Source: an uncultured Candidatus Saccharibacteria bacterium
GTDB lineage: Bacteria; Patescibacteriota; Minisyncoccia; 2-02-FULL-40-12; GWA2-44-9
Assembly (NCBI GenBank): GCA_964356795.1
Contig: CAYHIK010000001.1
Location: forward strand, 3,111 to 67,110
Length of the DNA: 64,000 nt
Reading direction: 5' to 3'
Shown here: piece after piece, positions 4,789 through 33,111 of the stretch
How positions within the stretch are numbered: position 1 is the stretch's first letter
Layout of the letters: every line of letters starts with the position of its first letter
Translations under genes and position numbers: made by a program
Notes under the pieces: model-generated
The model's database searches: none
Seen by the model: only the letters and a program-made list of their open reading frames with translations
Told to the model about the DNA's origin: nothing

Positions 4789-6142
4789 GACGCTTATTGT
4801 ACGGAACCGATGCACGTCCTGCAATGCCAGCGATGAGCGCCCACACTCCCCACCACAATAATCTGCCCTGCTGGAGCGTCCACGTGAAATGATCAAAGAG
4901 CACGATGGCACTCATCGAAAGCGCGAGCATGATAAGCGCAAAACGAACGAGTGGCTCACCCCGCTTCCGCATACGCTCCCGAATGCAGTACGCCATCCAC
5001 GCGATGAATGCAACAACACCGATAATACCTATTTCCGAATACATCAGGAGATACACGTTGTGCGCGGGCTGATACATATACCTGGGCAGGCCTGGATTGT
5101 AGTGGAAGAGCCACATTGGGAAATTACCAATACCGACGCCGAACCAATTAATATTCAACAGCGCCCGCGACCCGCTCGCGAGGGCGTCGATATTATATTG
5201 CACCCGATATCGCACCGCCTCATCAGATGATGAAATAGAAATGCGCGCGACAATGAGCGAAGAGAGCGCGAGACAGATGATTGCGCTCGAAATCGTGAGC
5301 GCAGCAAAGAGCCGTAAAAATCGCGCGCGAATTGTACGCCACCACGAGGCGCCCCGATACGCCTGATATGCGACGTATCCGAGCGTCACCATCAAAGCCG
5401 TCACATGCATTGCAATGATGGTACGGGAAAAAGTAACTACCAGACCCAGCGTAATAATTCCCATCGTGGCAGAATAAATTCCCATCGTGAGGGGCGATTC
5501 GTCGTCGTGCCTCATCCAGAACCACGACCACACCCACAGCGCCACCATCAATACGGCTGCGAGAATATTGGGATGTGGCAGGGTACCGTATGCGCGCAAC
5601 ACCTTCACCTTCGATAAATCATAAAACACTGCGACTCCCCTCATATCTGGGTTCAGGAGCGTCTCTCCAAGCCATCGGAGACCAACGTCGTGCTGGAGAA
5701 CAAACTGAGCAATACCGAGAGACGCTTGCACGAGCGCGCCCACCACAAACGCGAGCGCTGAAGCATCAGCTCGAAATACATACCAGGCATAGTGGCGAAG
5801 ATAGAGGTACAACAGCACACCCTCGATAAGCCGAGCGATAGAGTAGAGCGCAATAGGAAGTTCTTGAGCGTATATCAATGAACCAAGGGACATAGCCAGC
5901 ACGACTCCGAGGCTCCAATCCCACGCATCGAGGCGCCCCACGAACCACGCGCGCAGTCGTATACATGCAATCGTGAACAGGGCGAGCAGTAATACATCAG
6001 ACACATACAGCGCCATGGAGTTCCATTCACTAAATTGCAGGTCGTGCGTCCAGAATATCCAACGCGTTTGCCACGTACACAAACCTAAAAAAACATACCA
6101 CACGCCCTGCTCGAGAGACGGTAGCCACGATGAAGTCTTCAT
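4766..6142 (-). CDS. O-antigen ligase family (Wzy_C) polytopic membrane protein
   Basis: Multi-TM protein with Wzy_C-like FSRT...AHNVYLLMYSEIGIIG motifs. The start is probably ATG 6142 (MKTSSW), giving an ATGA overlap with the upstream permease stop. Confidence 0.55.
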   Translation of the reverse strand: MKTSSWLPSLEQGVWYVFLGLCTWQTRWIFWTHDLQFSEWNSMALYVSDVLLLALFTIACIRLRAWFVGRLDAWDWSLGVVLAMSLGSLIYAQELPIALYSIARLIEGVLLYLYLRHYAWYVFRADASALAFVVGALVQASLGIAQFVLQHDVGLRWLGETLLNPDMRGVAVFYDLSKVKVLRAYGTLPHPNILAAVLMVALWVWSWFWMRHDDESPLTMGIYSATMGIITLGLVVTFSRTIIAMHVTALMVTLGYVAYQAYRGASWWRTIRARFLRLFAALTISSAIICLALSSLIVARISISSSDEAVRYRVQYNIDALASGSRALLNINWFGVGIGNFPMWLFHYNPGLPRYMYQPAHNVYLLMYSEIGIIGVVAFIAWMAYCIRERMRKRGEPLVRFALIMLALSMSAIVLFDHFTWTLQQGRLLWWGVWALIAGIAGRASVPYNKRHANISHH

Positions 6143-19318: not shown

Positions 19319-20416
19319 CTATCGGAAAATGGTGCGCATCAAATCCTGAAGAACGGCACCGTTGAGCGGCGGGAGAATGGAGTCGGTGAGAAACAGCGCA
19401 AGCCCAACAATGGAGCCAATTGCACTCACCATCCAGAAACGCATCGTAATTTGGGTCTCATGCCATCCAAGCGCTTCGAAGTGATGGTGAATCGGCGTCG
19501 AAATGAAAATCTTCTTTCCACGAAGCTTCTTGCTCGTCATCTGCACAATGACTGAAAGCGACTCCATAACCAACACAATACCGATGACCGGTAAGAGGAG
19601 CGGAGTATTGGTAAGCATCGCAACAACGCCAACAGTGAAGCCAAGCGCCATCACGCCGGTATCCCCCATGAAAAACCGAGCTGGGTAAATGTTGAACCAC
19701 AAAAATGCAATCAGCGCCCCAATGAGGGCAGCGAGGAATACAACCAAATCCATATGCCCCTGATCAAATGCGATACCCGCGTACGCGGCGAGCATCGTCA
19801 TCAACGTGCCACCTACAAGCCCATCGAGGCCATCGGTTTCATTGCTCGAAAACGCAGTAGCAACAATCACAAAAACAAAGAAGAGTCCGTACCACAGTGG
19901 GCCGATAACCACATCTCCCATGAATGGGATATTGATAGCATCGTATCCGAGCTTTACCACGAACCACCACGCGCCAATCAGTGCGACAAGCGTGTACAAC
20001 AGCATGCGTTGCTTCATGCCAAATCCACCCCTGCGTCGAATGCCGATAATGTCGTCGGCCATTCCCACGAGCCCGGCGACAATCAAAAATCCGAGTGGCA
20101 AATACGTCTCGGAGCGTACGAGGAAATTCATACGACTCCAGAATCCATCAACGGTAAAATGAAGCCCCCAGAACAGGAGCGTGATAGCGACTGCAGTGAA
20201 CCACACCACAAACCCACCCATAGTGGGCGTGCCCTCTTTCTTTGAGTGGAGTGCATTAAATACGGGAGCTCCCTCGCGAGAAATCTGCTTGCCCCGCGCA
20301 AAGTATTTCTGCAACACCTTCATCCAGAGCGGTGTGAGAATTGATGCAACAAAAAACGACAGTGTCGCCACGGTCAGGATTCGCACCACATTAAATATCG
20401 TAAACGTCTCGTCCAT
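19319..20416 (-). CDS. mraY: phospho-N-acetylmuramoyl-pentapeptide transferase MraY
   Basis: MGDTGVMALGFTVG and HHHFE motifs in a polytopic membrane protein of 365 aa. Confidence 0.85.
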   Translation of the reverse strand: MDETFTIFNVVRILTVATLSFFVASILTPLWMKVLQKYFARGKQISREGAPVFNALHSKKEGTPTMGGFVVWFTAVAITLLFWGLHFTVDGFWSRMNFLVRSETYLPLGFLIVAGLVGMADDIIGIRRRGGFGMKQRMLLYTLVALIGAWWFVVKLGYDAINIPFMGDVVIGPLWYGLFFVFVIVATAFSSNETDGLDGLVGGTLMTMLAAYAGIAFDQGHMDLVVFLAALIGALIAFLWFNIYPARFFMGDTGVMALGFTVGVVAMLTNTPLLLPVIGIVLVMESLSVIVQMTSKKLRGKKIFISTPIHHHFEALGWHETQITMRFWMVSAIGSIVGLALFLTDSILPPLNGAVLQDLMRTIFR

Positions 20417-20419
20417 ATA

Positions 20420-21355
20420 TTATTCCCACCGATACGCGACCTGCGCCCACGAAATCAGGGCCCGTGTATCTGCAAATCTTCCACGCGAACCAAGAACAAT
20501 CGATACAAGTGTATCATTCTTTTCGGGTAATTTCACTACAAGCACCAAACACCCGAGCGCCTCATCGGTATAGCCTGTTTTGCCACCAACGATGCCAGGA
20601 ATCTGCCCAAGAAGCTCGTTGGTACTCACTACTTCATGCACGATTTTTCCATCAGCAGACGTCACCGCAATCCGTGATTGCGCCATAATGGGCCATAACT
20701 CCGGCGCCGAATGAAGCGTATCGCGCACCAAGCGAAGCAAGTCCTGAGCGGTACAGAGCGCCGCATCATCAAGCCCTGCGGGATCTATGAACGTACAATT
20801 ATACATTCCAAGTGAGTATGCCTTGCGGTTCATCTGCGCGACGAAATCAATACCACGCTCGCCCGCATATGCCGCGAGTGCGTATGCCGCATCATTACTT
20901 GATTCAACAAGCATCATCTGCACTAAATCACGAACCATGATGCGTTCGCCAAGATAGAGCGTCTGCTTCTGACCATCGACACGAACCGATTGCGAGGCAA
21001 TTGTGACGATTTCTTGTGAGTCAAAAAGGTCGCGGACCACAAGCGCAGTGAGTAACTTCGTAAGCGATGCGATGGGCACTTGAAGATTTGCATTCTTCTC
21101 AAATAATATCCGCCCGCTATCGAGGTGCGCGAGAAGTGCCGCGTTTGCATCGGGGATTGGCTCGACAATATTTGTGTCCCTGCGCGGAGCGTATGCAGGC
21201 TCAGCGATAGGCAGGAGAAAGGCTTGCGCCGCTCGGAGCTGTGGTGTCGCACCAGAAATATACGAGTATGGCTCAGGGTCGGGCGTCTTGAAGACGATCA
21301 CAACCACGGTGAGTCCAGCCAATATGAGCATTGGAAGAATCAATACACGCCGCAT
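20420..21355 (-). CDS. D-alanyl-D-alanine carboxypeptidase (S11, PBP5/6-like)
   Basis: Signal/TM N-terminus with the ASLTK (SxxK), SSND (SxN) and KTGYT (KTG) motifs. Confidence 0.8.
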   Translation of the reverse strand: MRRVLILPMLILAGLTVVVIVFKTPDPEPYSYISGATPQLRAAQAFLLPIAEPAYAPRRDTNIVEPIPDANAALLAHLDSGRILFEKNANLQVPIASLTKLLTALVVRDLFDSQEIVTIASQSVRVDGQKQTLYLGERIMVRDLVQMMLVESSNDAAYALAAYAGERGIDFVAQMNRKAYSLGMYNCTFIDPAGLDDAALCTAQDLLRLVRDTLHSAPELWPIMAQSRIAVTSADGKIVHEVVSTNELLGQIPGIVGGKTGYTDEALGCLVLVVKLPEKNDTLVSIVLGSRGRFADTRALISWAQVAYRWE

Positions 21356-21365
21356 GGGGCAATAA

Positions 21366-22781
21366 TTACTTTTCTATCGTTACGTGCAGCTCACGCAGCT
21401 GTCGGGAAGAAATCGGAGACGGAGAATGCATCATGAGATCGCGCGCGTCTCCTGTCTTTGGAAATGCGAGCACTTCGCGAATGTTTGGCTCATTATGCAA
21501 GAGCGCAATCAAGCGATCCCATCCCCACGCGATACCACCATGCGGAGGCGCACCGTGTTCGAATGCAGTGAGCATGTGACCGAAGTTTTCATCGATGCGC
21601 GCATCCTCAAAGCCCATGATACGAAAGACCGCGCGAAGACCTTCTGCGGTGTGGTTGCGAATTGAACCGCCACCAATCTCCCACCCGTTGAGCACGATGT
21701 CGTATTGGGTTGTGAGAATTTCTCCCACTCGTTCAGCACTGAGGAGTAACGGCATATGCTCTGGCTTGGGAGCCGAGAACGGGTTGTGAGTAAACGTCCA
21801 TCCACCACCATCCTCTTCAGTTTTCTCAAAGAATGGAAAATCAATAACCCAGCAGAACGCCAAGAGATTCTGGTCGTTTTTATCTTCGCGTAAATCGGGA
21901 CGATCGGTGCCGTATTTCTCTATTGCATCCGCATAGCTGATGCGCGGGAATGGAACTTGTTGAATCTTCTTTTCAGGATAGCGCTTCGTCACCAAATCAA
22001 TCAGGAGTGCTTCATTGAGCGCCATCACATCTTCTCGGTTCACAAAGCTCATCTCCATATCGAGCTGTGTAAATTCGGGCTGACGGTCACCGCGCGTGTC
22101 TTCATCGCGGAAGCATCGAGCAAATTGGAAATAGCGCTCCATACCAGCCACCATGAGGAGTTGCTTGTACTGCTGTGGCGACTGAGGAAGCGCATAAAAT
22201 GAGCCCGCGTAGAGACGACTTGGCACCACGTAGTCACGCGCGCCTTCGGGAGTGCTCTTAGTGAGCATAGGCGTCTCAATTTCGATAAACTCATGGGCGT
22301 CGAGCCAATTTCGTACAAATAATTGCCCATCGTGACGCGCCTGCATGTTGCGTGCAAGCCGTGGGCGTCGCAAGTCGAGGTAGCGCCACTCATGGCGAGT
22401 GTCTTCTCCAATCTCGTATCCATCGGTGTCGAGTGGCATCGGAGGAGTTGCCGACATGTTGAGCACTTCGAGCTCGTGCGGCTCGAGTTCGATAGAGCCA
22501 GTTTCGATTTCTGAATTTCGCATCTTCTCGGGACGCTCTTTGATGAGCCCCTTAATGCGCACCACCCATTCACTACGCAGTGTCTGCGCTACCTCGTAGC
22601 AGTCGGGCGTAAACGGACCGAATACCACCTGAATTACTCCGGTGCGGTCACGTAAATCAACGAATACAAGCTTGCCGTGGTCGCGACGATTCGCAACCCA
22701 CCCAAAAAGTTCCACCTCGCTCCCCGCCATGTCCTTGGTCTTGATAATAGATAATTCCTTCATGCCCTCGCATCGTATCAT
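21366..22781 (-). CDS. aspS: aspartate--tRNA ligase (class II, short archaeal/CPR-type; could be non-discriminating)
   Basis: OB anticodon-binding N-terminus (ELFGWVANRRDHGKLVFVDLRDRTG), plus class II motifs FRDEDTRGDRQPEFTQLD and GGSIRNH. 471 aa. Confidence 0.65.
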   Translation of the reverse strand: MIRCEGMKELSIIKTKDMAGSEVELFGWVANRRDHGKLVFVDLRDRTGVIQVVFGPFTPDCYEVAQTLRSEWVVRIKGLIKERPEKMRNSEIETGSIELEPHELEVLNMSATPPMPLDTDGYEIGEDTRHEWRYLDLRRPRLARNMQARHDGQLFVRNWLDAHEFIEIETPMLTKSTPEGARDYVVPSRLYAGSFYALPQSPQQYKQLLMVAGMERYFQFARCFRDEDTRGDRQPEFTQLDMEMSFVNREDVMALNEALLIDLVTKRYPEKKIQQVPFPRISYADAIEKYGTDRPDLREDKNDQNLLAFCWVIDFPFFEKTEEDGGGWTFTHNPFSAPKPEHMPLLLSAERVGEILTTQYDIVLNGWEIGGGSIRNHTAEGLRAVFRIMGFEDARIDENFGHMLTAFEHGAPPHGGIAWGWDRLIALLHNEPNIREVLAFPKTGDARDLMMHSPSPISSRQLRELHVTIEK

Positions 22782-22800
22782 ACGATTTGACGGGTCGCAA

Positions 22801-22829
22801 TTGAAAATGTTTAGTTTTTAGGGTATGAT
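22801..22829 (+). promoter_or_regulatory. sigma70-like promoter for tRNA-Lys (TTGAAA-N17-TATGAT)
   Basis: TTGAAA at 22801-22806, a 17-nt spacer, TATGAT at 22824-22829, then 12 nt to the mature tRNA 5' end. Confidence 0.5.
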
Positions 22830-22841
22830 ATGCGAGCAAAA

Positions 22842-22914
22842 CCGCCCTTAGCTCAGTTGGTAGAGCTGCTCCCTTTTAAGGAGAAGGTCGCTGGTTCGAA
22901 TCCAGCAGGGCGGA
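22842..22914 (+). tRNA. tRNA-Lys (anticodon UUU)
   Basis: Cloverleaf worked out by hand. Acceptor CCGCCCT/AGGGCGG, D-arm GCTC-AGTTGGTA-GAGC, anticodon arm GCTCC-CTTTTAA-GGAGA with U33 and A37, T-arm GCTGG-TTCGAAT-CCAGC, discriminator A. No encoded CCA. Confidence 0.85.
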
Positions 22915-23092
22915 CTATGAATCAACGGCTAATGCCCCTGCGACATTAGCCGTTGATTTTATGATTCATCCTGCTGGATTCGAAGCCCGGAGCGATGTGG
23001 CCGCACCAGCGGACACCGTGAGGGCCGGAACCCGGAGGCATTGATTCGCGACGGCGAATCAATGACCGGAGGGTGAATCCAGCAGGGCGGAC
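22898..23092. repeat. triplicated tRNA 3'-end segment: direct copies 22898-22915 and 23075-23092 (gaatccagcagggcggac), inverted copy 22967-22985
   Basis: Exact 18-bp direct repeat of the tRNA T-arm/acceptor 3' sequence 177 bp downstream, plus a 14/19 inverted copy. This is an att-site-like architecture. Confidence 0.6.
22921..22961 (+). terminator. rho-independent terminator after tRNA-Lys
   Basis: 14-bp perfect stem atcaacggctaatg / cattagccgttgat with a 9-nt loop, followed by TTTT. Confidence 0.6.
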
Positions 23093-23162
23093 AGACATTG
23101 ACATGCGAGCCTTTCTTGTGCATGATTAAGTGTGCTCGAGATATTTTTTTTGGAGGTAGCCT

Positions 23163-23381
23163 ATGAGCGCTCGGTCCCTCGAAAGGATCCAGGAAAAGCT
23201 GTGTCGCAACGATGCGGAGATACGCGCCCTTCAGGAGAAGAGGGAGCAGCTCCTAAAAGAGCTAAAGGCAGCGTGTAGCCATCCAAAGAACAGACGCCTC
23301 CAAACAGGCACCGGTGAGGTATGCGGCGTCTGCACTAAAGTCCTTGAGTGCTATCTGCCACACATCGGAAACCACATTTAG
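23163..23381 (+). CDS. small hypothetical protein (72 aa), coiled-coil N-terminus, C-terminal CGVC...C motif
   Basis: GGAGGT SD 6 nt before the ATG. A TTGACA -35 box lies at 23098-23103, directly after the tRNA-end repeat. The gene has its own hairpin terminator at 23389-23416. Confidence 0.5.
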   Translation: MSARSLERIQEKLCRNDAEIRALQEKREQLLKELKAACSHPKNRRLQTGTGEVCGVCTKVLECYLPHIGNHI

Positions 23382-23523
23382 AATCCTAGCCGACCACATG
23401 GTCGGCCTTTCCTTTGCTCTCTTATACTCATGTCTTAATGACAAATTTCGGAAGCCCGAGCTCATTGACTTTATACAATTATTATGTTATACTTAATATA
23501 GACGTTTTTCAAAGGAGGATGCC

Positions 23524-23835
23524 GTGAATATCGCAGGTATCGACAAGGCGATCGTATTGGCCGCGTTGTACAATCGCGCCCGTACCATCGGACTGGCGGG
23601 CATGATGGACTTCGACCCCACCCCACTGGACGTGCTGGTGGCGAGGAAGATCATCAAGGAACGGCGCGGTGCCAACCCACTGTACTTCGACTACTTCCAG
23701 GGGCGTTGCATGAAGATCGATCTCTCGAGAGATGAGGTCGACACCACGCTCTTCGACAACGAGTATGGCCCGGGTGCCGCCCAGCGAGCCCTCGACGCGG
23801 CATCTGCTGTCGATGCGGACATGAAGAAGAAGTAG
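23524..23835 (+). CDS. small hypothetical protein (103 aa)
   Basis: GTG start with an AAAGGAGG SD 5 nt upstream. Terminator hairpin at 23847-23884. Confidence 0.45.
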   Translation: MNIAGIDKAIVLAALYNRARTIGLAGMMDFDPTPLDVLVARKIIKERRGANPLYFDYFQGRCMKIDLSRDEVDTTLFDNEYGPGAAQRALDAASAVDADMKKK

Positions 23836-23969
23836 AAACCCCAAACGAACCCCACGCCAAACGGTATGGGGTTCAATCTTTTTAATAAAACCTCCCGAAA
23901 CTTGATTATTATCAATAAATATTGTACAGTATTTATGTCGTTTCATAGCGCAGTTAGGAGCGAGTAATT

Positions 23970-24230
23970 ATGCGCATTGAGATTCATGACTATACGCACA
24001 TCTTCGATAGCTTAACACTCAGGCGTCCGCCGACACACACACCCCTACTTCACTCTTGGGGTGTGGACGACAGTGGATATCCACGCGTCGTTGATATCCC
24101 AGGAGCGGATGTACTCCGAATCGAACGGGCATTTGCAGAATTCAAATGGGCACAGGAACGACTTCGAGGACTCAATCGTGGCCCCGAGCCAAATTCCTGC
24201 CAATGCGGAAACTGCCCAGGGAGTAGCTAG
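23970..24230 (+). CDS. small hypothetical protein (86 aa) with C-terminal CQCGNCPG motif
   Basis: AGGAG SD upstream. Followed by the hairpin agtcgcatt-ccgt-aatgcgact and T5 at 24254-24280. Confidence 0.45.
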   Translation: MRIEIHDYTHIFDSLTLRRPPTHTPLLHSWGVDDSGYPRVVDIPGADVLRIERAFAEFKWAQERLRGLNRGPEPNSCQCGNCPGSS

Positions 24231-24286
24231 GTCGTGGTCATCAAAGTCGCATTCCGTAATGCGACTTTTTCTATCACAACAATCAC

Positions 24287-25936
24287 CTACGACTTCCCGA
24301 GCGCTTTTGCGATGAGCGCGCGAAGCTCTTCATCGCTGGTAGTGCGGAATGATGCGCCCGTTGCTGTGGGGCGACTTGGCTTCTGTTCAAACTCTTCAGC
24401 ATCTGGCTTGTGTTCTATTTTCCTCCCCTTAAAGTCGACTGCTCCTTGCAATAGATTTCCCAGCGAAGCGGGAGGGCGCACCTCGGAAGCTTGTTGTTGT
24501 GGGCGCGACTGTTGCGGACGAGGCTGCTGCGGACGCGCCACTGATTGCGATGGGAATTGACCACGAGCGGGGCGCGGTGATGCTGGCCCATCATCTCGGC
24601 GGGGCGGACGCTCGCGAGCATCATCGCGAGGCGCGTAGCCCGCAGGCACGATTGGTGCGCGCCATGCTGATATGGCAGCTTCGACTTCTGCGCGCGGATG
24701 CGCGTACATCGTGCGCGAGTATTCGATAACCTCATTGCGCGTGCTCTGCGCGAGCTTTGCGGGCGTATCCATGGTCATCGCTGAAAACGCATGACTCGTG
24801 ACACCATCAATCATCAGCTTCAGATAAATCTGACGGAACCCAAGGTTCACAATATCAGTCGCCATAAACTCTGGCGCAAACTCTTTTTCCAAAAATTCGG
24901 CGTCTTCAGCTCCAACACGGAATGAAATAATCGTGCCCACGTTTCCAAATGCCGCTTCGGCAACCTTTTCGTCTAACTGCTTGATATATTGATGCCCAAC
25001 GATAAGGGATAGGTTGAATTTACGCGCTTCGGAAAGAATATTCGCAAACGAAGCCGTCGCAAAGTTTTGGAACTCATCAACGATAAGACAGAAGTCTGCG
25101 CGCTCATGCTTGGGAATATCAACGCGACTCATTGCGGCAAGCTGAACCTTGGTGATAATCATGGCCCCCAGCAAGCGCGATGCGTCCTCCCCAATGCGGC
25201 CCTTGGAAATATCGACAAGAATAATCTTCCGCTGGTCCATCGCCTCTCGCATGTTGAACGTGGATTTCGACTGGCCTACCAGGTTACGAATCAACGAGTT
25301 TGAAACGAATTGTCCGACCTTGTTCTGAATTGCTGCCGTCGCTTCACTCGCGAACTTATCAGTGTACTTTGCAAACTCCTGCGTCCAGAATGCCTTCACC
25401 TCGCTATCGGTCACCTGGTCAACAACGGTCTTCCGGTAGTCCTTTTCTGCCAACATGCGGTTGATGCCGAGCAACGTTGAGCCAGGCGCCTCCAAGAGTG
25501 CGAGGATAGTGTTGTTGAGAATGTACTCCATACGTGCCGACCATGCGTCTTCCCAAATCTTCTTGAACACCGCCATCATACCGTCCGCCACGAGGTGACG
25601 CTGATCAAATCCGACCTGTTCCATCACATTGAACCCAACAGGAAACTGCATATCTGCTGGGTTGATGAAGATCACATCTTTGACGCGCTCGGGTGGGATA
25701 TAGTCGAGGAGATCGAACACCGCATCTCCGTGGGGGTCCATAAAGCAGAGTCCACGACCGTCCTGAATATCCTGAATCGCAAGCGTCTTGAGAAGTTCGG
25801 ACTTGCCCATGCCCGATTTGCCAACCACGTACATGTGGCGGCGACGGTCATCGAGCTTGATGCCGAAATGCGTAACAGAATTTCGAAACTCTGTGTTTCC
25901 AAACAGTACTACATCATTGTCAGAATTGGCGTTCAT
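24287..25936 (-). CDS. VirD4/TraD/TraG-like type IV secretion coupling-protein NTPase (T4SS-DNA_transf domain), no TM segments; P/R/Q-rich C-terminal tail
   Basis: Walker A GKSGMGKS and Walker B LIVDEFQNF in a TrwB/TraD-type ATPase core. The low-complexity tail is RPQQPRPQQSRPQQQ. Confidence 0.65.
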   Translation of the reverse strand: MNANSDNDVVLFGNTEFRNSVTHFGIKLDDRRRHMYVVGKSGMGKSELLKTLAIQDIQDGRGLCFMDPHGDAVFDLLDYIPPERVKDVIFINPADMQFPVGFNVMEQVGFDQRHLVADGMMAVFKKIWEDAWSARMEYILNNTILALLEAPGSTLLGINRMLAEKDYRKTVVDQVTDSEVKAFWTQEFAKYTDKFASEATAAIQNKVGQFVSNSLIRNLVGQSKSTFNMREAMDQRKIILVDISKGRIGEDASRLLGAMIITKVQLAAMSRVDIPKHERADFCLIVDEFQNFATASFANILSEARKFNLSLIVGHQYIKQLDEKVAEAAFGNVGTIISFRVGAEDAEFLEKEFAPEFMATDIVNLGFRQIYLKLMIDGVTSHAFSAMTMDTPAKLAQSTRNEVIEYSRTMYAHPRAEVEAAISAWRAPIVPAGYAPRDDARERPPRRDDGPASPRPARGQFPSQSVARPQQPRPQQSRPQQQASEVRPPASLGNLLQGAVDFKGRKIEHKPDAEEFEQKPSRPTATGASFRTTSDEELRALIAKALGKS

Positions 25937-25939
25937 AGA

Positions 25940-27268
25940 TTAGCGAGTAGGAAGCATCGTGGGTGGCTGACCCTTCTTCGACTGTACGCGTGGAAGAAGT
26001 GGAGCTTTTACATTAAGGCCTGGCATGTGCCACAACGTGGCGAGCTCTTCAACATTGAGGATGAGTGGGAAATCTTTCGGATTTTTTGACGGCTTGGCGA
26101 ACGCGCGCTTTCGATACGAGCCGTACATACCCTTCTTCTTTTTCAGCGTCCCCTCATCGGCACCAAATCCTTTGTCATTCGGGAAGAGCCAGGGGAATGT
26201 GCCCTTGTCCTTAGTGCCCGCTCCCGGCTTGAAGGTGTTCATGTTGTTGTAGAACAACTGCTTAAACATTGCGGTAATACTGGATGGACGCGCGCCATTG
26301 AATGCGTCTTTGCGAGCCACATACAGTACGCGAAGCGTTGTCTTGAATGCAACCAGCGAAAGCTTTCGCTGTATGCCTTCGAGCGCAAGCTTGTCTGCAG
26401 GCGTGAGATTCCCCATCGTGAATGGTTTCTCTTCTTTCTTTTTCTCCTCCGCAGGTGTAATCAAGCCGAACTCTGTGGCGAGAAACCCAAGAAGGGTGAA
26501 TGGAGCAAGCGCAATCGTCTGCACGAGCGGAGCTTCTGGCTTCTTGGGCTCCTTGCCAATCATCTTATCGACAACCGCTTGACCGTCTTTCACCCAATCG
26601 CCACCGGTGGGGCGGAAGATGTACTGCAACCACAAATACTCCCCAGGTCGAAGGGCGCTCATCATTTCAAGCAGTGGCGCGAGTGGATCAAGTCGAGCGT
26701 ACTCATCCTTACCTCCCGCGTCTTCAAATTCAGTCCAACTCCTGATGGGGTATGCGGGTGGCTGGGAGCCGACGAACTCGGTGCCCGACACATCGTATTG
26801 CGTTGAATCAAACTCATCGGGCAAAAGCGAGATGTAATCACCCGTCATCTTAATCTCGGCTTGCGGGTATTGCGCGAACAGAAGCGCCTCAACGGTATTC
26901 CGCTGACCCTCAGTGCATCGAATATAGAAATGAGTCTCTCCCCCATGCGAGACAATCTCGAGCGAGAACCAATCCGGGACTTTGCCCACAAAATATTGAT
27001 CCTTCCACTTAATACCTCCACCGTAGCTCGCATGAAGCCCGGCAAAAAAGTTTTGCGCTGCCATCGGACTGCTATAGAGAATCTCAGGCGGTGGAACAAT
27101 CTCGAGCACCACCCATTTCATACCAGCAAGATACGCGTCTTTGAGGTAATCAAGCCAGAGTGAACGAGCAACCGCTCCAAGAATCAGCGGGAACCACACC
27201 CACCAAAACTCAAACGCGAGCAAAAAGCCCTGTCGTAATACGCTGAGAATTGACGTCGCATCATACAT
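25940..27268 (-). CDS. membrane protein genetically coupled to the VirD4-like ATPase (possible split N-terminal membrane module of coupling protein)
   Basis: Two N-terminal TM helices, then a 400 aa soluble domain with a Lys-rich tail. Its stop lies 4 nt from the ATPase start, so the two are translationally coupled. Confidence 0.45.
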   Translation of the reverse strand: MYDATSILSVLRQGFLLAFEFWWVWFPLILGAVARSLWLDYLKDAYLAGMKWVVLEIVPPPEILYSSPMAAQNFFAGLHASYGGGIKWKDQYFVGKVPDWFSLEIVSHGGETHFYIRCTEGQRNTVEALLFAQYPQAEIKMTGDYISLLPDEFDSTQYDVSGTEFVGSQPPAYPIRSWTEFEDAGGKDEYARLDPLAPLLEMMSALRPGEYLWLQYIFRPTGGDWVKDGQAVVDKMIGKEPKKPEAPLVQTIALAPFTLLGFLATEFGLITPAEEKKKEEKPFTMGNLTPADKLALEGIQRKLSLVAFKTTLRVLYVARKDAFNGARPSSITAMFKQLFYNNMNTFKPGAGTKDKGTFPWLFPNDKGFGADEGTLKKKKGMYGSYRKRAFAKPSKNPKDFPLILNVEELATLWHMPGLNVKAPLLPRVQSKKGQPPTMLPTR

Positions 27269-27359
27269 AGTCTCTTGATAAAGTATACCACATTACGCGC
27301 AAAGGCCCCGTGTATACGGAGCCTTTGCGAACCCGCCGGATTTCTCCCGGACATGTTTT

Positions 27360-28421
27360 CTATTTCTTGCGAAGATGGAAGTGGCCGTTTTCGTCTTTCA
27401 CGAATGTGCCAGAATCCTGGAGATTCAATAGAATCGTATTCTCCTTTACCAAGCGTACCGAGCTCACGCGAGCAACCAACTCCACGCGTGGCAATGGCTT
27501 GCCATGTGAGCGAAGGATATCTACTAGCACATCTTTGACGGTGCCCGATTTATATCCCCACTCGGAGAGCGCATACATACCGCGGCCAACGAGCACAAAT
27601 CGCTTGTCCTTGATGAGCTCATTGTGCACGGTCTGCACGTTCACCTTCTTTGCATCAAATTTTGCCACGTTGATAAGCTTCGCAATCTGGCTGAAGTGCT
27701 GAGGCTTTTCTGCCTGCTTGATCACCAAATACGCCTTATCGCGAACACCCTTGGGACGAATCTGGCTCCAGTGGGTCAATCCCATCTGGCCAAAAATATT
27801 GCATCCGAGGTCCTTGCAAATAGCAGAAATCGTTGCGAGGTGCTTATCGGTAAACTTTGAACCATCGAGTGCGGATACATTATTTTTCGTCGCAAGCTCA
27901 ATGACCTGGCCCACGGGAATAACCGAATTATGAGACTGAAGGGCGGACGTGAGCGCCGCAACCTGCGCGCGGAACGCATCGAGGGTCGCGCGGCTACGCG
28001 TCCAAAACGCGTGGTAGTGGTCGTTGTCCGCCATACGAATCAATTCAGTGTCGAGTGTAAGTGCAAAAATAAGAGAGGCATTGGCGACGGTGTCCTTGTC
28101 GTTTCCTGACACCATTTTGAACAATGCTCGCTCACGAACAACCCCACCCTCCCGAGCAATCAAATCCTTCATACTTGATGTAAATCGAGTCAATTCACGA
28201 ATATCTGAAGCATGCTTTGCGAGCTGAGCAAGCGCGAACTCTTCAATCTGTCGAACGCGTTCACGAGTGATTCCGTACCCCTTACCGATGGATTCGAGCG
28301 TTTCCTTGGTGCCTGTCTTCAAACCAAAGCGCCGTGAGACGATATCACGGTTACGCGGATTGAGCGTTTTGACCAACTGTGCGACTGACTTGGTCAGGGT
28401 TTTTACATCGATAGTTGCCAT
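27360..28421 (-). CDS. sigma-70 region-4-like HTH domain protein
   Basis: N-terminal ...GITRERVRQIEEFALAQL, the sigma r4 HTH signature, followed by a ~300 aa domain of unknown function. Likely ATG at 28421; the track ORF starts at TTG 28487. Confidence 0.45.
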   Translation of the reverse strand: MATIDVKTLTKSVAQLVKTLNPRNRDIVSRRFGLKTGTKETLESIGKGYGITRERVRQIEEFALAQLAKHASDIRELTRFTSSMKDLIAREGGVVRERALFKMVSGNDKDTVANASLIFALTLDTELIRMADNDHYHAFWTRSRATLDAFRAQVAALTSALQSHNSVIPVGQVIELATKNNVSALDGSKFTDKHLATISAICKDLGCNIFGQMGLTHWSQIRPKGVRDKAYLVIKQAEKPQHFSQIAKLINVAKFDAKKVNVQTVHNELIKDKRFVLVGRGMYALSEWGYKSGTVKDVLVDILRSHGKPLPRVELVARVSSVRLVKENTILLNLQDSGTFVKDENGHFHLRKK

Positions 28422-28526
28422 ACGTTTGCATCTGTTATCTAAAGCAATGCCGTCCTCTCGGGGCAGCACGCCTACATACAGTAGCAATTATTATTAAACT
28501 CGTCAAGCCCTCCCGCCAGACACTCC

Positions 28527-29471
28527 CTACCGAGACTTATTTCGACGACTCATCCACACAAGAACCGGTGATGCGATAAAGATTGAGGAATACGCCCCCA
28601 GGCCAATCCCGAGCATAAGCGCAAGGGCAAAATACTTGATACTGTCCCCTCCAAACAAGAACACCGCAAGGGATGACAGGATCACCACGAGCGTATTATT
28701 GATAGAGCGAACCAGCGTTTGCATGACACTTTCGTGTACCAAGTCTGGCAGGGAAAGCTTCGAGCCACGAAGGATATTCTCGCGGACGCGGTCATAGATA
28801 ACCACCTTGTCGGAGACGGTGTAGCCCAAGATGGTCAAGATTGCGGCAACATAGATACCAGTGATTTGGACATCGTAGAAATGCCCAAGTACCGCGAAGA
28901 CGCCCATAGGGATAATGATGTCGTGCGCGAGGCCGAGAAGCGTCCCCGCGGTCATCGCCCACAGCGAGAGTGACCGTGAAAGCGTTCTAAACATCCACGC
29001 GATGTACACGAGCACCGCCGTCAATAAGATAAAAATTGCGAGCTTACTCTTTTGCACAAGCTCGTCTCCAAGCGCAGGTCCGATGGAATCGAATCGCACC
29101 TCGGTGATTGTTGTCGTTGGAAATGCCTTCGTAAGCCCCTCCAGGAGCGCCTGATGTTCAGTCTCGCTCAGTGGACCACTTCGAATAATGGTCTCGGAAT
29201 CGCCCGACGGGCTTACGGTGATATCGAGATACGACTTCCCATCAAGCTGTGCAATCGCCTTGATGACATCGTCATTCGCTGGTCGCTCGCTAAATTGCAC
29301 CTCGAGAATACTCCCGCCCGTGAAGTCAACGCCCCAATTCAAGCCCCATACTTTCAATACGCCAAACGACGCAATGAGTATGATGACCGAAGCCGCGAAC
29401 ATGACAGAATAAAATCGTTTCATGGAATCAAGAGAATAATGCTCGATACTTACCAAGACGGCTCGATGCAA
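28527..29471 (-). CDS. secF: protein translocase subunit SecF
   Basis: GLNWGVDFTGGSILEVQF motif and an RND-like 6-TM topology. The start could instead be ATG at 29423. Confidence 0.8.
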   Translation of the reverse strand: MHRAVLVSIEHYSLDSMKRFYSVMFAASVIILIASFGVLKVWGLNWGVDFTGGSILEVQFSERPANDDVIKAIAQLDGKSYLDITVSPSGDSETIIRSGPLSETEHQALLEGLTKAFPTTTITEVRFDSIGPALGDELVQKSKLAIFILLTAVLVYIAWMFRTLSRSLSLWAMTAGTLLGLAHDIIIPMGVFAVLGHFYDVQITGIYVAAILTILGYTVSDKVVIYDRVRENILRGSKLSLPDLVHESVMQTLVRSINNTLVVILSSLAVFLFGGDSIKYFALALMLGIGLGAYSSIFIASPVLVWMSRRNKSR

Positions 29472-30786
29472 ACACTCGCAAGAATGTACGCGTTACCACG
29501 ATAGAGGTAAACAAGCTTATAATAACGCCCGTCCCCAACGTGAGTGCAAACCCTCGAACAATCGACGCCGTGAATGCATACAGGACCAATGCGCTAATGA
29601 ATGCCGTCACGTGACTGTCGCGAATCGATGGCCACGACCGACGGAATCCCTCTGCCATCGCCGCACTGAGCGAGCGCCCTGCAGAAAGCTCCTCTTTCAT
29701 ACGAGCAAAAATAAGGACATTTGCATCAAGCGCCATGCCCAGCGAAAGAATGAATCCAGCTACACCCGCGAGCGTCAATGTGACGGGTAATGCCTTATAT
29801 ACAGAAAGCGTAATAAGAAGATAGACACCCAATGCAAGAAGCGACGTGACACCGGGAAGACGGTAAAAGGCAATCATGAAGAGGCCCACAAGAATGAGTC
29901 CCCATACTCCCGCATTCATACTATTCTGAAGCGATTCCTGACCCAGCGATGCTCCAATCGTCTGCTGTGAAATAAGCTTGATTGGCACGGGAAGCGCTCC
30001 GCTATTGAGGCGGGTTGCAAGCAACTTCGATTCTGGGGCTGTGAAGTTTCCGCTAATGACGGCGCTTCCATCCACAATCTCACTCTGAACAACAGGGATA
30101 CTAATAGGAACCCCGTCGAGGAAGATCGCGACCGGCTTCCCAAGATTGCGTCGCGTAATATCGGCAAATAACTTTGCGCCTTCATCGTTGAGCTCAAGAC
30201 TCACCTGGGGTCGTCCCGTCTGAGGGTCGAATGACACCAGCGCGCGTTTTAATTGTTTGCCAGAAAGGCCTGTTGAAATCCACGCATTTGGATCGGTAGC
30301 GCTCTGCTCTTTGAATTCCAAGAATGGCGTCTCCCCGATGAGCTTGATTGCCTCGTTCACATCCTTTACACCCGCAATCTCAACAATGAGTCTATCCGAG
30401 CCGCTGATTTGCACGACTGGCTCTGCAACACCAAAGAAGTTCACCCGACGCTCGACGACATCGCGAACACCCTGCATCGCAGAGGCGCGGTCAATATCGG
30501 CGGCAAGGCCTGAGAAGTCCGCCTGATACAGTAAGTGTGCACCTCCGAGTAAATCGAGCCCAAGGGTAAACGGTTGCGCGGGAACACTCGGAATCGGTCC
30601 GAGCCATGAAGGGAGATACTGATTCGTAAATCCAATACCGCGATTTACTGCACTCGGAGACACGTACACAAACAACGCCAACGATATGAGAATTATGCTT
30701 GAGAGAATTTTTGAGTTTCGCGTCATGCGTGGAACATCAATTACGGGCTTCATGATGACAATACTGACCGTTCTTGTCAAATCCAC
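29428..30786 (-). CDS. secD: protein translocase subunit SecD
   Basis: LGLDLLGGAHLLYQAD motif, a periplasmic domain and a C-terminal 6-TM bundle. Start ambiguous between GTG 30786, ATG 30753 and ATG 30726. Confidence 0.8.
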   Translation of the reverse strand: MDLTRTVSIVIMKPVIDVPRMTRNSKILSSIILISLALFVYVSPSAVNRGIGFTNQYLPSWLGPIPSVPAQPFTLGLDLLGGAHLLYQADFSGLAADIDRASAMQGVRDVVERRVNFFGVAEPVVQISGSDRLIVEIAGVKDVNEAIKLIGETPFLEFKEQSATDPNAWISTGLSGKQLKRALVSFDPQTGRPQVSLELNDEGAKLFADITRRNLGKPVAIFLDGVPISIPVVQSEIVDGSAVISGNFTAPESKLLATRLNSGALPVPIKLISQQTIGASLGQESLQNSMNAGVWGLILVGLFMIAFYRLPGVTSLLALGVYLLITLSVYKALPVTLTLAGVAGFILSLGMALDANVLIFARMKEELSAGRSLSAAMAEGFRRSWPSIRDSHVTAFISALVLYAFTASIVRGFALTLGTGVIISLFTSIVVTRTFLRVFASSRLGKYRALFS

Positions 30787-31002
30787 GGCTCTTCATGACG
30801 TCCTCCATATGGGTCCTTCGCCGATAGTCCCTGCTCGGAACTTGGTCACAAAGAACGCTCACCTCGCGAACCGTAGAACATGTTGCAATATTGGGGATGC
30901 AACATTCTGCGGCTCGCCATCAGCTCGCATCTATCATTTCTGCCAAGATTCCTAGGGCAGGGGCTACCGGCTACGGATCACTCGATATATGCTCTTACTA
31001 AT

Positions 31003-31030
31003 GAAAAGGCGGAGATGGTTAGTCTCCGCC
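31003..31030 (-). terminator. rho-independent terminator after small membrane protein gene
   Basis: ggcggaga/tctccgcc stem followed, on the minus strand, by TTTTCATT. Confidence 0.5.
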
Positions 31031-31055
31031 GAGGACGCACTACCGCCGACGCTTT

Positions 31056-31430
31056 CTACGAGATGCCGGCGTTATCTGGCTTCCGCCTGGTGAAGAACCC
31101 GCGGAGATAGTAGTAAGCCACCCCCTGCAAGGAGCCGATGATCATGAAGATCCCCGGGGAAAGGACGTAGAACAAGCGGATGTGCCACTCAAGTCCGCCC
31201 GTCGTGATCGTCCACATGGGAATGCCGCCGATTACGAGACCCAGCGGACCCCATACCAACACCTCCCGAGTGGACAGGTAACCCGAACCACCCGCTCTCT
31301 TCATGTGAATCTTCGCCAGTGTGAACCCGAGGAGCACTGCGCATGGCCACTCAGCCAGCCACACCAGACTACCCACAAACCCGAGCGCCACGAACACTAC
31401 GAGCAACGTAAATTCCATGCAAACCTCCAC
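31056..31430 (-). CDS. small 4-TM membrane protein (hypothetical)
   Basis: 124-codon ORF, four hydrophobic segments; no CrcB or SMR signature. Confidence 0.4.
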   Translation of the reverse strand: MEVCMEFTLLVVFVALGFVGSLVWLAEWPCAVLLGFTLAKIHMKRAGGSGYLSTREVLVWGPLGLVIGGIPMWTITTGGLEWHIRLFYVLSPGIFMIIGSLQGVAYYYLRGFFTRRKPDNAGIS

Positions 31431-31466
31431 TGCACATGATACGCCATAATTTGTATCATGTCAAGT

Positions 31467-31629
31467 TTCCCGCTAACCCATTCCAGCGCAGGGGTCTTGG
31501 CGGAAATAATAGTTGCGAGGCGAAATCAACCGCAGTAGTGTTGCATCTTCAAAACTGCAACATCTACTACGGTCGATAAGCCGAGAACTCCTTACGACCA
31601 AGCCCCGAGCAGGGATGGGTTAGCGGGGA
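31467..31629 (-). other. ~160-nt nested inverted-repeat / structured element in the intergenic region between the nuclease gene and the small membrane protein gene
   Basis: Outer 15-bp inverted repeat ttcccgctaacccat / atgggttagcgggga, and a second tier ggggtcttgg / ccaagcccc. The inner hairpin is ccgcagtag-tgttgca...tgcaaca-tctactacgg. Confidence 0.5.
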
Positions 31630-31635
31630 AGTTGA

Positions 31636-33111
31636 CTACTCTGCCTCATCGAGCTTTTCACGAGACTTGCGGGGCTTCTGGGAGGCGAGCCAATCGCGGA
31701 GGAGCATCGTGGCGCGTACATCGTCTTCGTTGTAGCGAATGATTCTATCAAGCGATGCGCGATCCCCCGTGCGAAGCCACGTGTCGTACCATACGACAGA
31801 CTCCGCTCCGCCCGCCTCCGAATCTGCCCATGCATACCCAAGATACTTTGCCACATCTTTCAATGTATAGAAGTAGAGCGGAAGCACTACGGAATCAATC
31901 GTCTTCTGGTGGAGATCAACCGAGTGTTCGTGGAATTTCTGCACGAGATGCGATGGCGCACCGTGGCGCTGTGCGAGACGGTCAAACACCATCTTTTCAT
32001 AAAACGCATAGTGATAAATCGCAAAATTCTCCCACCCTGCGAGCAGGTCGAGGAATTTGCCCCACATCACGGCTTCATCTTCGGGCTTTTCTGCAATCAG
32101 CGTAGAGTAGGTCACGGCACCAGACGCAGTATCGCGAATCAAAAGCCCAAGCAAATAATCGACGTCGCGCGTCGGATCAGATTCAATATCGAAGAAAATT
32201 TCAGTGGCAACCTCGGGAAATGCCCCCTTTCGGATAATCTTTGGCTCTCCGCTCATGAGGACGCGCGCCTGATTCTGGAAACGGACAATCTTATCGTACG
32301 GCCAATCTTCAAATTTACCACGGAGATCGTCGGCATCGGCTTGTGCAAGGTCGGCAACCGTATGAATCCCAACGCTATACAAACGACGCTGATCGGCCTG
32401 CGAGAGGCGATAGATAAGCGAGACGTCATTGCATCCTTCGGCACCCTCAAGGCAAAGCGAGTACCACGGAGTACGCTTACAGCTCGATTTCAAGAACGGC
32501 GCGGGCTTATCCCCCGATAAGATGCGCTCGATGTCTTCGCGCGTTGTGTGAAATTGCGAAATAAAATCCCCTACCAAAAACGAACGCTCATGGCCCTGTG
32601 GATCAATCACGTATGCCTCGGTCGGCCGCACACCCTGAATCTTCTCTAAAATCAAAGAATAGAACACGAGCGGAAACTTATGCTCATCTTTAAGCTCAAG
32701 ATTTCGCTGTACATCGTACGTGACATATTGAAAGTCCCCCAGCGTACTCTTCCCGGGTCGAGCTTCGAGTAAATCGGGCATCCCCACCCAATCTTCCGTC
32801 ATGAGCACACCGTGGTAAATGTTTTTCCCCTGCTTCATCAGCTCGAGCGTTGCCAAGTAGGCCTCTTCCAAGTCGCGATACTGCTCGGGCTTGAGTTCCT
32901 CGAACTTCTTATGCGCTCCAAGTGAGCCGACGGCATCCTGCATCTTACCTTTGTAGATAATATCCAGGAGTGGGGATGGCTCTTTCTTATGCGCGCTATC
33001 GGCGTAAATGTCGTACCAAATCCAATGCGGGCACTGAAAGAATTTATAGAAGTGCTGAGCGGTTAGTTTCTGTGTTGGTTCCATGGGGGCATTGTACCGT
33101 GCGCGCAGCAA
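31636..33111 (-). CDS. TM0106-family RecB-like nuclease (RNase H-like/YprB-type domain)
   Basis: 491 aa. The C-terminal region EIFFDIESDP...YHYAFYEKMVFDRL...YNEDDVRAT resembles the TM0106 putative RecB-family nuclease. Confidence 0.45.
   Translation of the reverse strand: MLRARYNAPMEPTQKLTAQHFYKFFQCPHWIWYDIYADSAHKKEPSPLLDIIYKGKMQDAVGSLGAHKKFEELKPEQYRDLEEAYLATLELMKQGKNIYHGVLMTEDWVGMPDLLEARPGKSTLGDFQYVTYDVQRNLELKDEHKFPLVFYSLILEKIQGVRPTEAYVIDPQGHERSFLVGDFISQFHTTREDIERILSGDKPAPFLKSSCKRTPWYSLCLEGAEGCNDVSLIYRLSQADQRRLYSVGIHTVADLAQADADDLRGKFEDWPYDKIVRFQNQARVLMSGEPKIIRKGAFPEVATEIFFDIESDPTRDVDYLLGLLIRDTASGAVTYSTLIAEKPEDEAVMWGKFLDLLAGWENFAIYHYAFYEKMVFDRLAQRHGAPSHLVQKFHEHSVDLHQKTIDSVVLPLYFYTLKDVAKYLGYAWADSEAGGAESVVWYDTWLRTGDRASLDRIIRYNEDDVRATMLLRDWLASQKPRKSREKLDEAE

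Follow-up and report, generated by a model that had tools for sequence, protein, structure and literature searches.

A repeated tRNA-Lys tail in a patescibacterial genome may mark the 3′ end of an element resembling the tRNA-linked repeats of Escherichia coli rather than the boundary of an island

What does it mean when the 3′ end of a tRNA gene is repeated a short distance downstream of the gene? The question is raised by a 64,000-nucleotide (nt) stretch of DNA from an uncultured Candidatus Saccharibacteria bacterium (GenBank assembly GCA_964356795.1, contig CAYHIK010000001.1, positions 3,111 to 67,110 of the forward strand), hereafter called the window. Its only tRNA gene, identified with ARAGORN and Rfam, is tRNA-Lys(UUU) at 22842-22915 on the + strand, and the last 18 nt of this gene recur downstream. 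An initial annotation of the DNA took these repeats to be the footprint of a tyrosine recombinase, flanking a 5.5-kb accessory module that reaches to secDF and lacks an integrase. Our best reading of the feature is a different one, namely an element like the tRNA-linked repeats (TLRs) of Escherichia coli in a new phylum, located beside a slot of small, fast-turnover open reading frames (ORFs). Specifically, we propose with evenly balanced confidence that the repeated tRNA-Lys tail forms the 3′ end of a TLR-like tRNA-trailer element of the RtT type, and not the boundary of an island.

An exact search of the window confirms the repeat. The 18-mer, GAATCCAGCAGGGCGGAC, occurs twice (22898-22915 and 23075-23092) with 177 nt from start to start, and two occurrences were reached in none of 100 shuffles. 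No third copy is found in the window, and none near secF, even when three mismatches are permitted. Both copies lie at the tRNA-proximal edge of the 5.5-kb stretch, with 159 nt between them, and thus they do not flank it. Copy 1 spans the 3′ part of the T-loop, the 3′ strands of the T-stem and the acceptor stem, the discriminator, and one further nucleotide. The inverted partial copy that had been reported between the repeats at 22967-22985 does exist, but its coordinates differ: positions 22970-22984 hold a 15-mer that exactly matches the reverse complement of tRNA positions 54-68 (22895-22909). The TTGACA box said to follow the second copy is likewise present, 5 nt past copy 2, as part of a promoter-like site. 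The leader ‘agcaaaa’ directly 5′ of the tRNA is also found in two related loci, L206 and L209 (loci in other genomes and contigs carry our own L numbers).

The sequence that ends with copy 2 has a structure of its own. The first 12 nt of the inverted 15-mer (22970-22981) are the exact complement of the first 12 nt of copy 2 (23075-23086), and their pairing would form a closing helix, P1, around two hairpins, P2 and P3, to give a structure of ~130 nt that we call element E. The predicted fold of 22960-23100 reaches −73.4 kcal/mol, compared with a shuffle mean of −46 (z = −8). A sister lineage (L084 and L206-L209) holds element E at the same place. Between the window and this lineage, 42 of 42 predicted pairs are kept, with 7 compensatory and none broken. 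In the main stem of P3, 4 of the 11 pairs have changed on both sides in L084/L206 and pairing is intact, and the junction nucleotides of the element are invariant. These pair-conservation values were matched by none of 500 shuffles, and slid controls drop to 25-45% paired. Identity between the lineages is 80-87% in element E versus 48% at synonymous third positions of the neighboring ATPase gene. It is 32% in the promoter region and 39% in the post-tRNA hairpin, which is unalignable between the window and L206 although the element is conserved. Because base pairs have been kept or compensated while neighboring neutral sites are saturated, element E appears to be under constraint for structure. 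In both lineages, the predicted fold of the element is slightly better on the + strand than on the − strand.

A covariance model of the element (R1) matches only the window, the duplicate contig L081 from Hainich groundwater, which is 99.98% identical to the window, and L084/L206-L209. Apart from these, the model found no copy of element E, either elsewhere in the window or across ~1.1 Mb of related loci. Some other accounts of the same sequence were considered and rejected. A peptide encoded across the element, like tpr of E. coli, is ruled out by a 2-nt indel that shifts the frame between the lineages, and the N-terminal halves of the would-be peptide are unrelated. The element interior is not a decayed inverted tRNA, as the similarity is not above that of shuffles. 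A 29-nt inverted match (76%) between the tRNA and the first small ORF downstream is at chance level.

It might be argued that parts of the tRNA gene were duplicated locally by replication slippage or template switching, without any function, and that nothing in this arrangement has been selected. The tRNA fragments are short, and a further 12-nt inverted tRNA match at 23241-23252 is at chance level. However, the pair of exact 18-mers was not reached by shuffling, element E is conserved far above neutral sites with every base pair kept, and independent TLR-like arrangements occur in E. coli and in another Patescibacterium (L162). We regard a chance duplication as very improbable.

Between the tRNA gene and element E stands the post-tRNA hairpin, H. 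It is homologous to the post-tRNA hairpin of the element-free loci L088 and L044 (34 of 54 positions match, a score reached in none of 300 shuffles), and the flank after copy 2 is not homologous to that hairpin. By this comparison, hairpin H appears to be native flank. Because the hairpin that follows copy 1 is native in this sense, the 18-mer belongs to the element and is not one of an attL/attR pair around foreign DNA. The ~130-nt element itself appears to have been gained or lost as a discrete unit at a point between the hairpin and the downstream promoter, with tRNA-derived sequences as its own termini. The equivalent TTGACA box comes after the element in L206 and directly after the hairpin in the element-free locus L193. 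These two loci share the cargo ORF, the promoter, and the hairpin, and only L206 has the element; thus, cargo and element are not linked. The window, in turn, pairs the element with cargo unlike that of L206. Instead of being an attR for the cargo, the second 18-mer forms the 3′ end of a structured element that is conserved in its own right.

A more limited form of the integration hypothesis can be built from the same locus. A tyrosine-integrase element might once have resided in the region from the T-loop to the 3′ end of tRNA-Lys, such that 23075-23092 would be a displaced attR-type fragment, the structured element a surviving attachment-site arm, and the small ORFs leftovers of cargo, with the integrase deleted. 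The known integrase sublocations in tRNA genes include the D-loop, the anticodon loop, and the T-loop (bioRxiv 10.1101/2020.11.02.365908), and the Islander principle applies to tRNA-integrated islands (PMC4383910). As in tRNA integration scars, the window has an intact tRNA and a displaced 3′ fragment as direct repeats, and the identity block is exact, sharp-edged, and extends from the T-loop to the 3′ end, a known sublocation (bioRxiv 10.1101/2020.11.02.365908; PMC4383910). Nested fragments are present in a sister strain, L206, where pieces comprising tRNA positions 1-16, 36-74, and 57-74 begin in the D-loop, the anticodon loop, and the T-loop, and by this insertion L206 differs from the 99.88%-identical L209. 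Furthermore, the locus is variable: the slot downstream of the tRNA is empty in L083, L086, and L196 and holds other ORFs elsewhere, the 103-amino-acid (aa) ORF in the window has a phage homologue, and the orientation of the tRNA flips among relatives.

However, the window departs from such scars in several ways. The ORFs tested yielded neither an integrase nor an excisionase, and the repeats bound only 159 nt of DNA. These 159 nt include the native hairpin, whereas a simple attL/attR arrangement puts the native flank after copy 2. The repeats do not bracket DNA that is absent from a virgin site, as only the 130-nt element and ~1.2 kb of ORFs vary; the cargo lies outside the repeats and does not co-vary with the element (L193 versus L206); and base composition is not atypical. 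The displaced fragment adjoins a structurally constrained element, and a neutral scar would not keep 80-87% identity and compensatory stems beside saturated neutral sites. In addition, no viral contig in IMG/VR carries the junction sequences of the element, with zero viral matches to both junction patterns. As candidate viral partners in that database, the 18-mer matched only phage tRNA-Leu genes and one coding region, and a 16-mer of the element core gave 25 chance matches without other motifs; both were rejected. A recombination scar is possible but rather doubtful as the explanation of the locus. The initial annotation had suggested a decayed or trans-mobilized element or a nested att scar; the 5.5-kb mobile module does not survive, and an att-scar origin of the tRNA fragments is plausible.

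What kind of element, then, ends in a copy of the tRNA tail? TLRs have been known in E. coli since 1978 and were reportedly described by Egan and Landy in that year. They include the RtT/RttR repeats of tyrT-tyrV and rrA, rrB, and rrF after 5S rRNA genes. By definition, a TLR directly follows a tRNA or rRNA gene within the operon of that gene and shares its strand, and the 22 copies at ten loci in E. coli have no known function (PMC8144298). Element E lies 49 nt downstream of the end of tRNA-Lys (22915) on the + strand, and its 3′ end is identical to the end of the upstream gene at 18 of 18 nt. Its predicted fold also has the architecture of the RtT type, with a ~130-nt core, a closing helix, internal hairpins, and a free 3′ tail. 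Homology was not detected: the RtT model (RF00391), which as a positive control gave 4 matches of 133-137 bits in E. coli, finds nothing in window positions 20000-32000 (E ≤ 1) or in L206. Element E would therefore be a TLR by definition and architecture, not by descent.

The likeness extends to dimensions. In tyrT-tyrV of E. coli, the 19-nt segment that runs from the T-loop to the end of tRNA-Tyr is repeated with a period of 178 nt; the corresponding values in the window are 18 and 177. The Rfam RtT model is 130 nt in length, as is approximately the core in the window, and in both cases the tRNA-derived segment pairs with a complement upstream of it to form the closing helix, which encloses two hairpins. 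The last 9 nt are free in the RtT model and the last 6 in the window. In E. coli, 90 nt separate an inverted 10-mer from the direct copy that follows it, and the spacing in the window is also 90 nt. Similarly, rrB after the 5S rRNA gene consists of a terminator hairpin and a branched domain of 168 nt closed by a copy of the 5S 3′ end, and the hairpin between gene and element in the window corresponds in position to rrnB T1. In contrast to the E. coli TLRs, the window element belongs to the phylum Patescibacteria, and it has no detectable sequence similarity to them. It is present as one copy and not as a tandem array, its inverted copy is longer and perfect (12-15 nt versus 10 nt), its tRNA lacks an encoded CCA, and it lies directly upstream of a promoter for variable small ORFs.

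A second, unrelated TLR-like arrangement was observed in the other Patescibacterium mentioned above (L162:3280-3560), where tRNA-Ile(GAT) lies in an rRNA operon, downstream of the 16S rRNA gene. An inverted copy of the T-arm is located 26 nt downstream of this tRNA, and a 58-nt direct repeat with a period of 134 nt begins with its last 11 nt.

Another observation concerns a motif. CC(C/G)GGAG occurs three times in element E (22986-23075), with the GGA predicted to be unpaired each time. Similar motifs, CCGGGAGCGGAT and CCCGGAGGGTG, are found in the same order in rrB of E. coli (L215:549-590), a TLR reported to bind CsrA, and the overall similarity to rrB is not significant. The GGA count shows mild enrichment (7 observed versus 3.7 expected in the window, 4 versus 3.6 in L206), and neither CsrA nor Hfq was found in the sequences examined. 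Given this weak enrichment and the absence of both proteins from those sequences, we do not claim that the element is a CsrA sponge.

By analogy with rrA, rrB, rrF, and RttR of E. coli, it seems reasonable to propose how such an element might be produced. RNA polymerase would read through a leaky post-tRNA hairpin, whose U tract is absent in L084/L206 and L193 and partial in the window, and the element would be made as the 3′ trailer of tRNA-Lys. Processing of the tRNA 3′ end would free the 5′ side of the element, and its tRNA-like 3′ end, together with the closing helix, might set and protect the 3′ end. This would yield a small, stable RNA, ~130-177 nt in length, whose unpaired junction nucleotides are conserved and include several GGA. 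In silico, the 253-nt transcript also has a competing fold that is 9 kcal/mol more stable than the cloverleaf plus the element; in it, the inverted copy is base-paired to the 3′ half of the tRNA and copy 2 to the 5′ half.

A number of observations weigh against the TLR-like interpretation. Local alignment to the E. coli TLRs is not above that of shuffles (z < 2), and in the 20-32 kb region of the window the tRNA was alone in matching Rfam (E ≤ 1), with RtT among the models that did not match. Our data contain only 2 independent sequences of the element, and the covariation comes from comparing this one pair. The nearest relatives (L193 and L083) and most others lack the element. By ATPase identity, L206, L193, and L083 cluster at 89-90%, with the window 83-87% identical to them, and because they cluster apart from the window, at least two gains or losses of the element are needed. 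Element E thus seems dispensable, and this pattern also fits selfish or mobile DNA. The conserved structure could equally be that of an RNA or of folded single-stranded DNA. Moreover, the hairpin in the window, with its partial U tract, could terminate transcription. Finally, because the 18-mer begins in the T-loop, a canonical sublocation for integrase crossover, a recombinational origin of the element is plausible.

Perhaps the 130-nt element is a miniature, non-autonomous mobile DNA with 12-bp terminal inverted repeats and a folded attachment site, served by a recombinase in trans. Its folded single-stranded DNA would rebuild the T-arm duplex of the tRNA gene, and insertion would occur beside tRNA-Lys. 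The attP site of CTX phage and the attC sites of integrons are folded single-stranded attachment sites. To these sites and to miniature inverted-repeat transposable elements (MITEs), the window element is similar in that its arms, ~90 nt apart, would rebuild a duplex identical to the chromosomal target, in that its structure is kept over its sequence, and in its patchy occurrence. The window and L206 have it, and L193 and L083, which are nearer to L206, are without it. The perfect 12-bp stem at the termini is identical to tRNA gene positions 57-68, and the element always occupies the same site. However, the element is single-copy in the window and across the ~1.1 Mb of related loci, so that of the features of a MITE the 12-bp terminal inverted repeat is present and dispersed copies and a target-site duplication are lacking. 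No recombinase was found near it and no XerCD-type site was identified, its shape is a Y and not a simple hairpin, and TLRs of this architecture in E. coli are not known to be mobile. Mobile DNA of this kind is improbable in our judgment, and we retain the TLR-like trailer element as the preferred reading. The coordinates of its parts and of the neighboring features are collected in Table 1.

Table 1. Positions of the repeat copies, the structured element, and neighboring features in the window
Feature	Coordinates	Strand	Remarks
tRNA-Lys promoter-like site TTGAAA-17-TATGAT	22801-22829	+	
tRNA-Lys(UUU) gene	22842-22915	+	CCA not encoded; 74/74 identical in L083, L194, L206/L209
Direct-repeat copy 1	22898-22915	+	tRNA positions 57-74
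177-nt tRNA-linked repeat unit	22916-23092	+	Hairpin H plus structured element
Post-tRNA hairpin H	22920-22958	+	15-bp arms, 9-nt loop, weak U tract; apparent native flank, outside element
Structured element E	22964-23092	+	~130 nt, predicted three-way junction; conserved in L084/L206-L209 lineage
Inverted 15-mer	22970-22984	+	First 12 nt are the 5′ strand of closing helix P1
Hairpin P2 of E	22985-23025	+	Stem sequence differs in L084/L206, compensatory changes
Hairpin P3 of E	23030-23074	+	11-bp stem, symmetric GGA/GGA internal loop
Direct-repeat copy 2, 3′ end of E	23075-23092	+	23075-23086 is the P1 3′ strand; GCGGAC unpaired
Promoter-like site TTGACA-17-CATGAT	23098-23126	+	For first small ORF
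ORF, 72 aa, orphan	23163-23381	+	GGAGG ribosome-binding site; terminator 23389-23406
ORF, 103 aa	23524-23835	+	Own promoter 23465-23493; uncharacterized domain family with phage members
ORF, 86 aa, orphan	23970-24230	+	Followed by hairpin ~24245-24266 shared with convergent ATPase gene
VirD4/TrwB-like ATPase (type IV coupling protein homologue), 549 aa	24287-25936	−	Conserved chromosomal gene, outside element
DUF8128 membrane partner, 442 aa	25940-27268	−	Conserved with ATPase, outside element
Sigma70_r4 + HARE-HTH protein, 375 aa	27360-28487	−	Conserved between SecF and DUF8128, outside element

If the repeats do not bound the 5.5-kb stretch, is the stretch mobile for another reason? The genes that the initial annotation placed there, namely three small ORFs, a VirD4-like ATPase, its membrane partner, and a sigma-r4 protein near secDF, are all present as judged by family matches. 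The reported lack of an integrase also holds, in that no integrase domain was found in the ORFs tested, which did not include every ORF past ~36 kb. The ATPase contains TrwB_AAD_bind, TraG-D_C, and DUF87 domains, and the sigma-r4 protein gene is followed by SecF and then SecD. We surveyed synteny in public genomes, metagenomes, and assemblies with the ATPase and aspartyl-tRNA synthetase (AspRS) as anchors; the relatives obtained are labelled Paceibacterota, Yanofskybacteria, or Patescibacteria. The order SecD, SecF, sigma-r4, DUF8128, ATPase, tRNA-Lys, AspRS, DacC, MraY is found in L083, L086, L088, L090/91, L194, L196-L201, L206, L213, and L214. This full order recurs in relatives with 67-98% ATPase identity, the block from SecDF through sigma-r4 and DUF8128 to the ATPase is kept down to ~60% ATPase identity, and dozens of loci keep the ATPase and its partner in synteny with SecDF.

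The initial annotation had also asked whether the interval from tRNA-Lys to secF is empty elsewhere, and had named a conserved gene order as the result that would argue against a mobile origin. The interval is not empty: the sigma-r4, DUF8128, and ATPase genes are present in all relatives, and ~1.2 kb varies. The proposal of a 5.5-kb accessory module fails, as ~4.2 of the 5.5 kb is conserved synteny in relatives and GC content is flat (0.48-0.56 over 22-29 kb, level with its surroundings, with no compositional shift). Because the gene order is conserved, a mobile origin of the module is refuted, and the sigma-r4/DUF8128/ATPase block is, on this comparative evidence, conserved, non-mobile chromosome. 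The ORFs tested included neither a relaxase nor a VirB4, and the pattern expected of an integrative and conjugative or mobilizable element (ICE/IME), with variable presence and genes for a relaxase and mating-pair formation, is not observed. ATPase homologues number more than 7,900 at E ≤ 1e-100. Homologues of VirD4-type coupling proteins have been counted at 5,713 in 2,918 Patescibacteria genomes, mostly unlinked to virB4 and possibly exapted (PMC12102498).

Several further observations concern these genes. The sigma-r4/HARE-HTH, DUF8128, and VirD4-like ATPase genes form a conserved triad beside SecDF across Paceibacteria. Phages carry a fused DUF8128-ATPase version, because a single profile of 824 positions, PHROG 5156, covers both the DUF8128 protein and the ATPase. 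L083 (3571-4953) is 61% identical to the window in AspRS, compared with 70-71% in DacC and MraY and 100% in tRNA-Lys, and AspRS identity to the window in other relatives is 75-77%. The AspRS of L083 could have been replaced or could be fast-evolving. In a scan of GTDB representatives, full-length AspRS matches were at most 65% identical, and the best match, at 77%, was a partial one in L044, which indicates that the species is absent from that set; the AspRS of the window also has no exact protein on record. Nearly all long ORFs of the window are on the − strand, and the few + strand features include tRNA-Lys and the three small ORFs.

The part of the stretch that does vary is the tRNA-Lys/ATPase junction, which is a real variable slot. 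In the window, the interval from the tRNA to the ATPase stop codon measures 1,371 nt and comprises the repeat structure and three ORFs with their own promoter or terminator, and only ~1.2 kb of the module (the three orphan ORFs, 23163-24230) is lineage-specific. In L083, L086, and L194 the tRNA ends 5-24 nt from the ATPase stop, and the tRNAs of L083 and L194 are identical to that of the window. The slot contains a 174-aa ORF in L044/L088, a 110-aa ORF in L193 and L206, and other ORFs plus an inverted tRNA in L213 and L214. In L194 and L200, two ORFs are located upstream of the tRNA. Relative to the window, the tRNA-Lys between the ATPase and AspRS is inverted in L087, L090/L091, L203, L213, and L214. 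The neighborhood of the tRNA is thus often rearranged between fixed flanking genes, with slot ORFs upstream (L194, L200) or downstream of it.

The three small ORFs are probably separate, fast-turnover cargo in this slot. The coding status of the 72-aa ORF is uncertain, because on the identical contig a gene caller instead predicted an ORF of 45 aa on the other strand. The 103-aa ORF has a homologue in Dulem virus 39, a temperate phage: a hypothetical protein encoded in the early region, at 48% identity (E = 8e-18). Its family has 1,404 cluster representatives at E ≤ 1e-3, and none of those tested has a Pfam domain. The shared domain of ~90 aa occurs in proteins of 90-340 aa and has weak links to PHROGs 12532 and 1828. 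Neither the 72-aa and 86-aa ORFs nor the cargo ORFs of the relatives have a significant match in Pfam, NCBIfam, or PHROGs. A phage connection for the three small proteins, which the initial annotation had thought worth seeking, therefore exists for the 103-aa protein, but there is no phage match for the 72-aa and 86-aa proteins.

The tRNA-Lys locus has also been rebuilt in one of two closely related strains. L206 (6535-6239, − strand), a Hainich H52 strain, differs here from L209 (5042-4940), a Hainich H41 strain, and the strains are 99.88% identical over 4.9 kb; by this measure, the change at the L206 locus appears to be very recent. The order in L206 is promoter, tRNA positions 1-16, 57 nt, a full tRNA-Lys, 112 nt, tRNA positions 36-74, hairpin, and element, and the full tRNA-Lys is flanked by a perfect 17-nt inverted repeat. 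A larger element may lie hidden between the two identical tRNA copies, collapsed during assembly; their length of 74 nt is above the usual maximum k (55) of metaSPAdes, the assembler suggested by the style of the contig names. Many assemblies break in or beside tRNA-Lys, including L081 (whose end corresponds to window position 23010), L192, L195, L193, L203, and L207. We considered such breaks as a sign of heterogeneity at the locus and rejected this idea, because the Logan contigs end at exact 30-nt (k−1) overlaps. Their ends are at tRNA positions 1-30 or 45-74, which suggests that a second tRNA-Lys isoacceptor with identical arms exists elsewhere in these genomes.

One consequence of this analysis is the removal of a false positive, as a VirD4-like ATPase beside a tRNA with repeated ends proves to be core synteny of Paceibacteria. 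With respect to the element, the presence of a TLR-like but non-homologous architecture in an ultrasmall groundwater bacterium suggests that the architecture itself matters. It also provides a comparative handle on the role and origin of TLRs, through covariation, gain and loss, and metatranscriptomes. A broader speculation, which we consider unlikely enough to be offered only tentatively, is that RtT/TLR-type elements are a cross-phylum class and not an enterobacterial oddity, with unrelated bacteria repeatedly building a ~130-nt module. Such a module may be built on a copy and an anti-copy of the region from the T-arm to the 3′ end of the preceding tRNA. If this is true, a general mechanism would be implied, for example an RNA that exploits the tRNA 3′-end processing or CCA-addition machinery or, alternatively, a miniature element whose attachment site is a folded imitation of the tRNA gene. 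In that case, the strain-level polymorphisms of the Hainich aquifer would make the mechanism observable.

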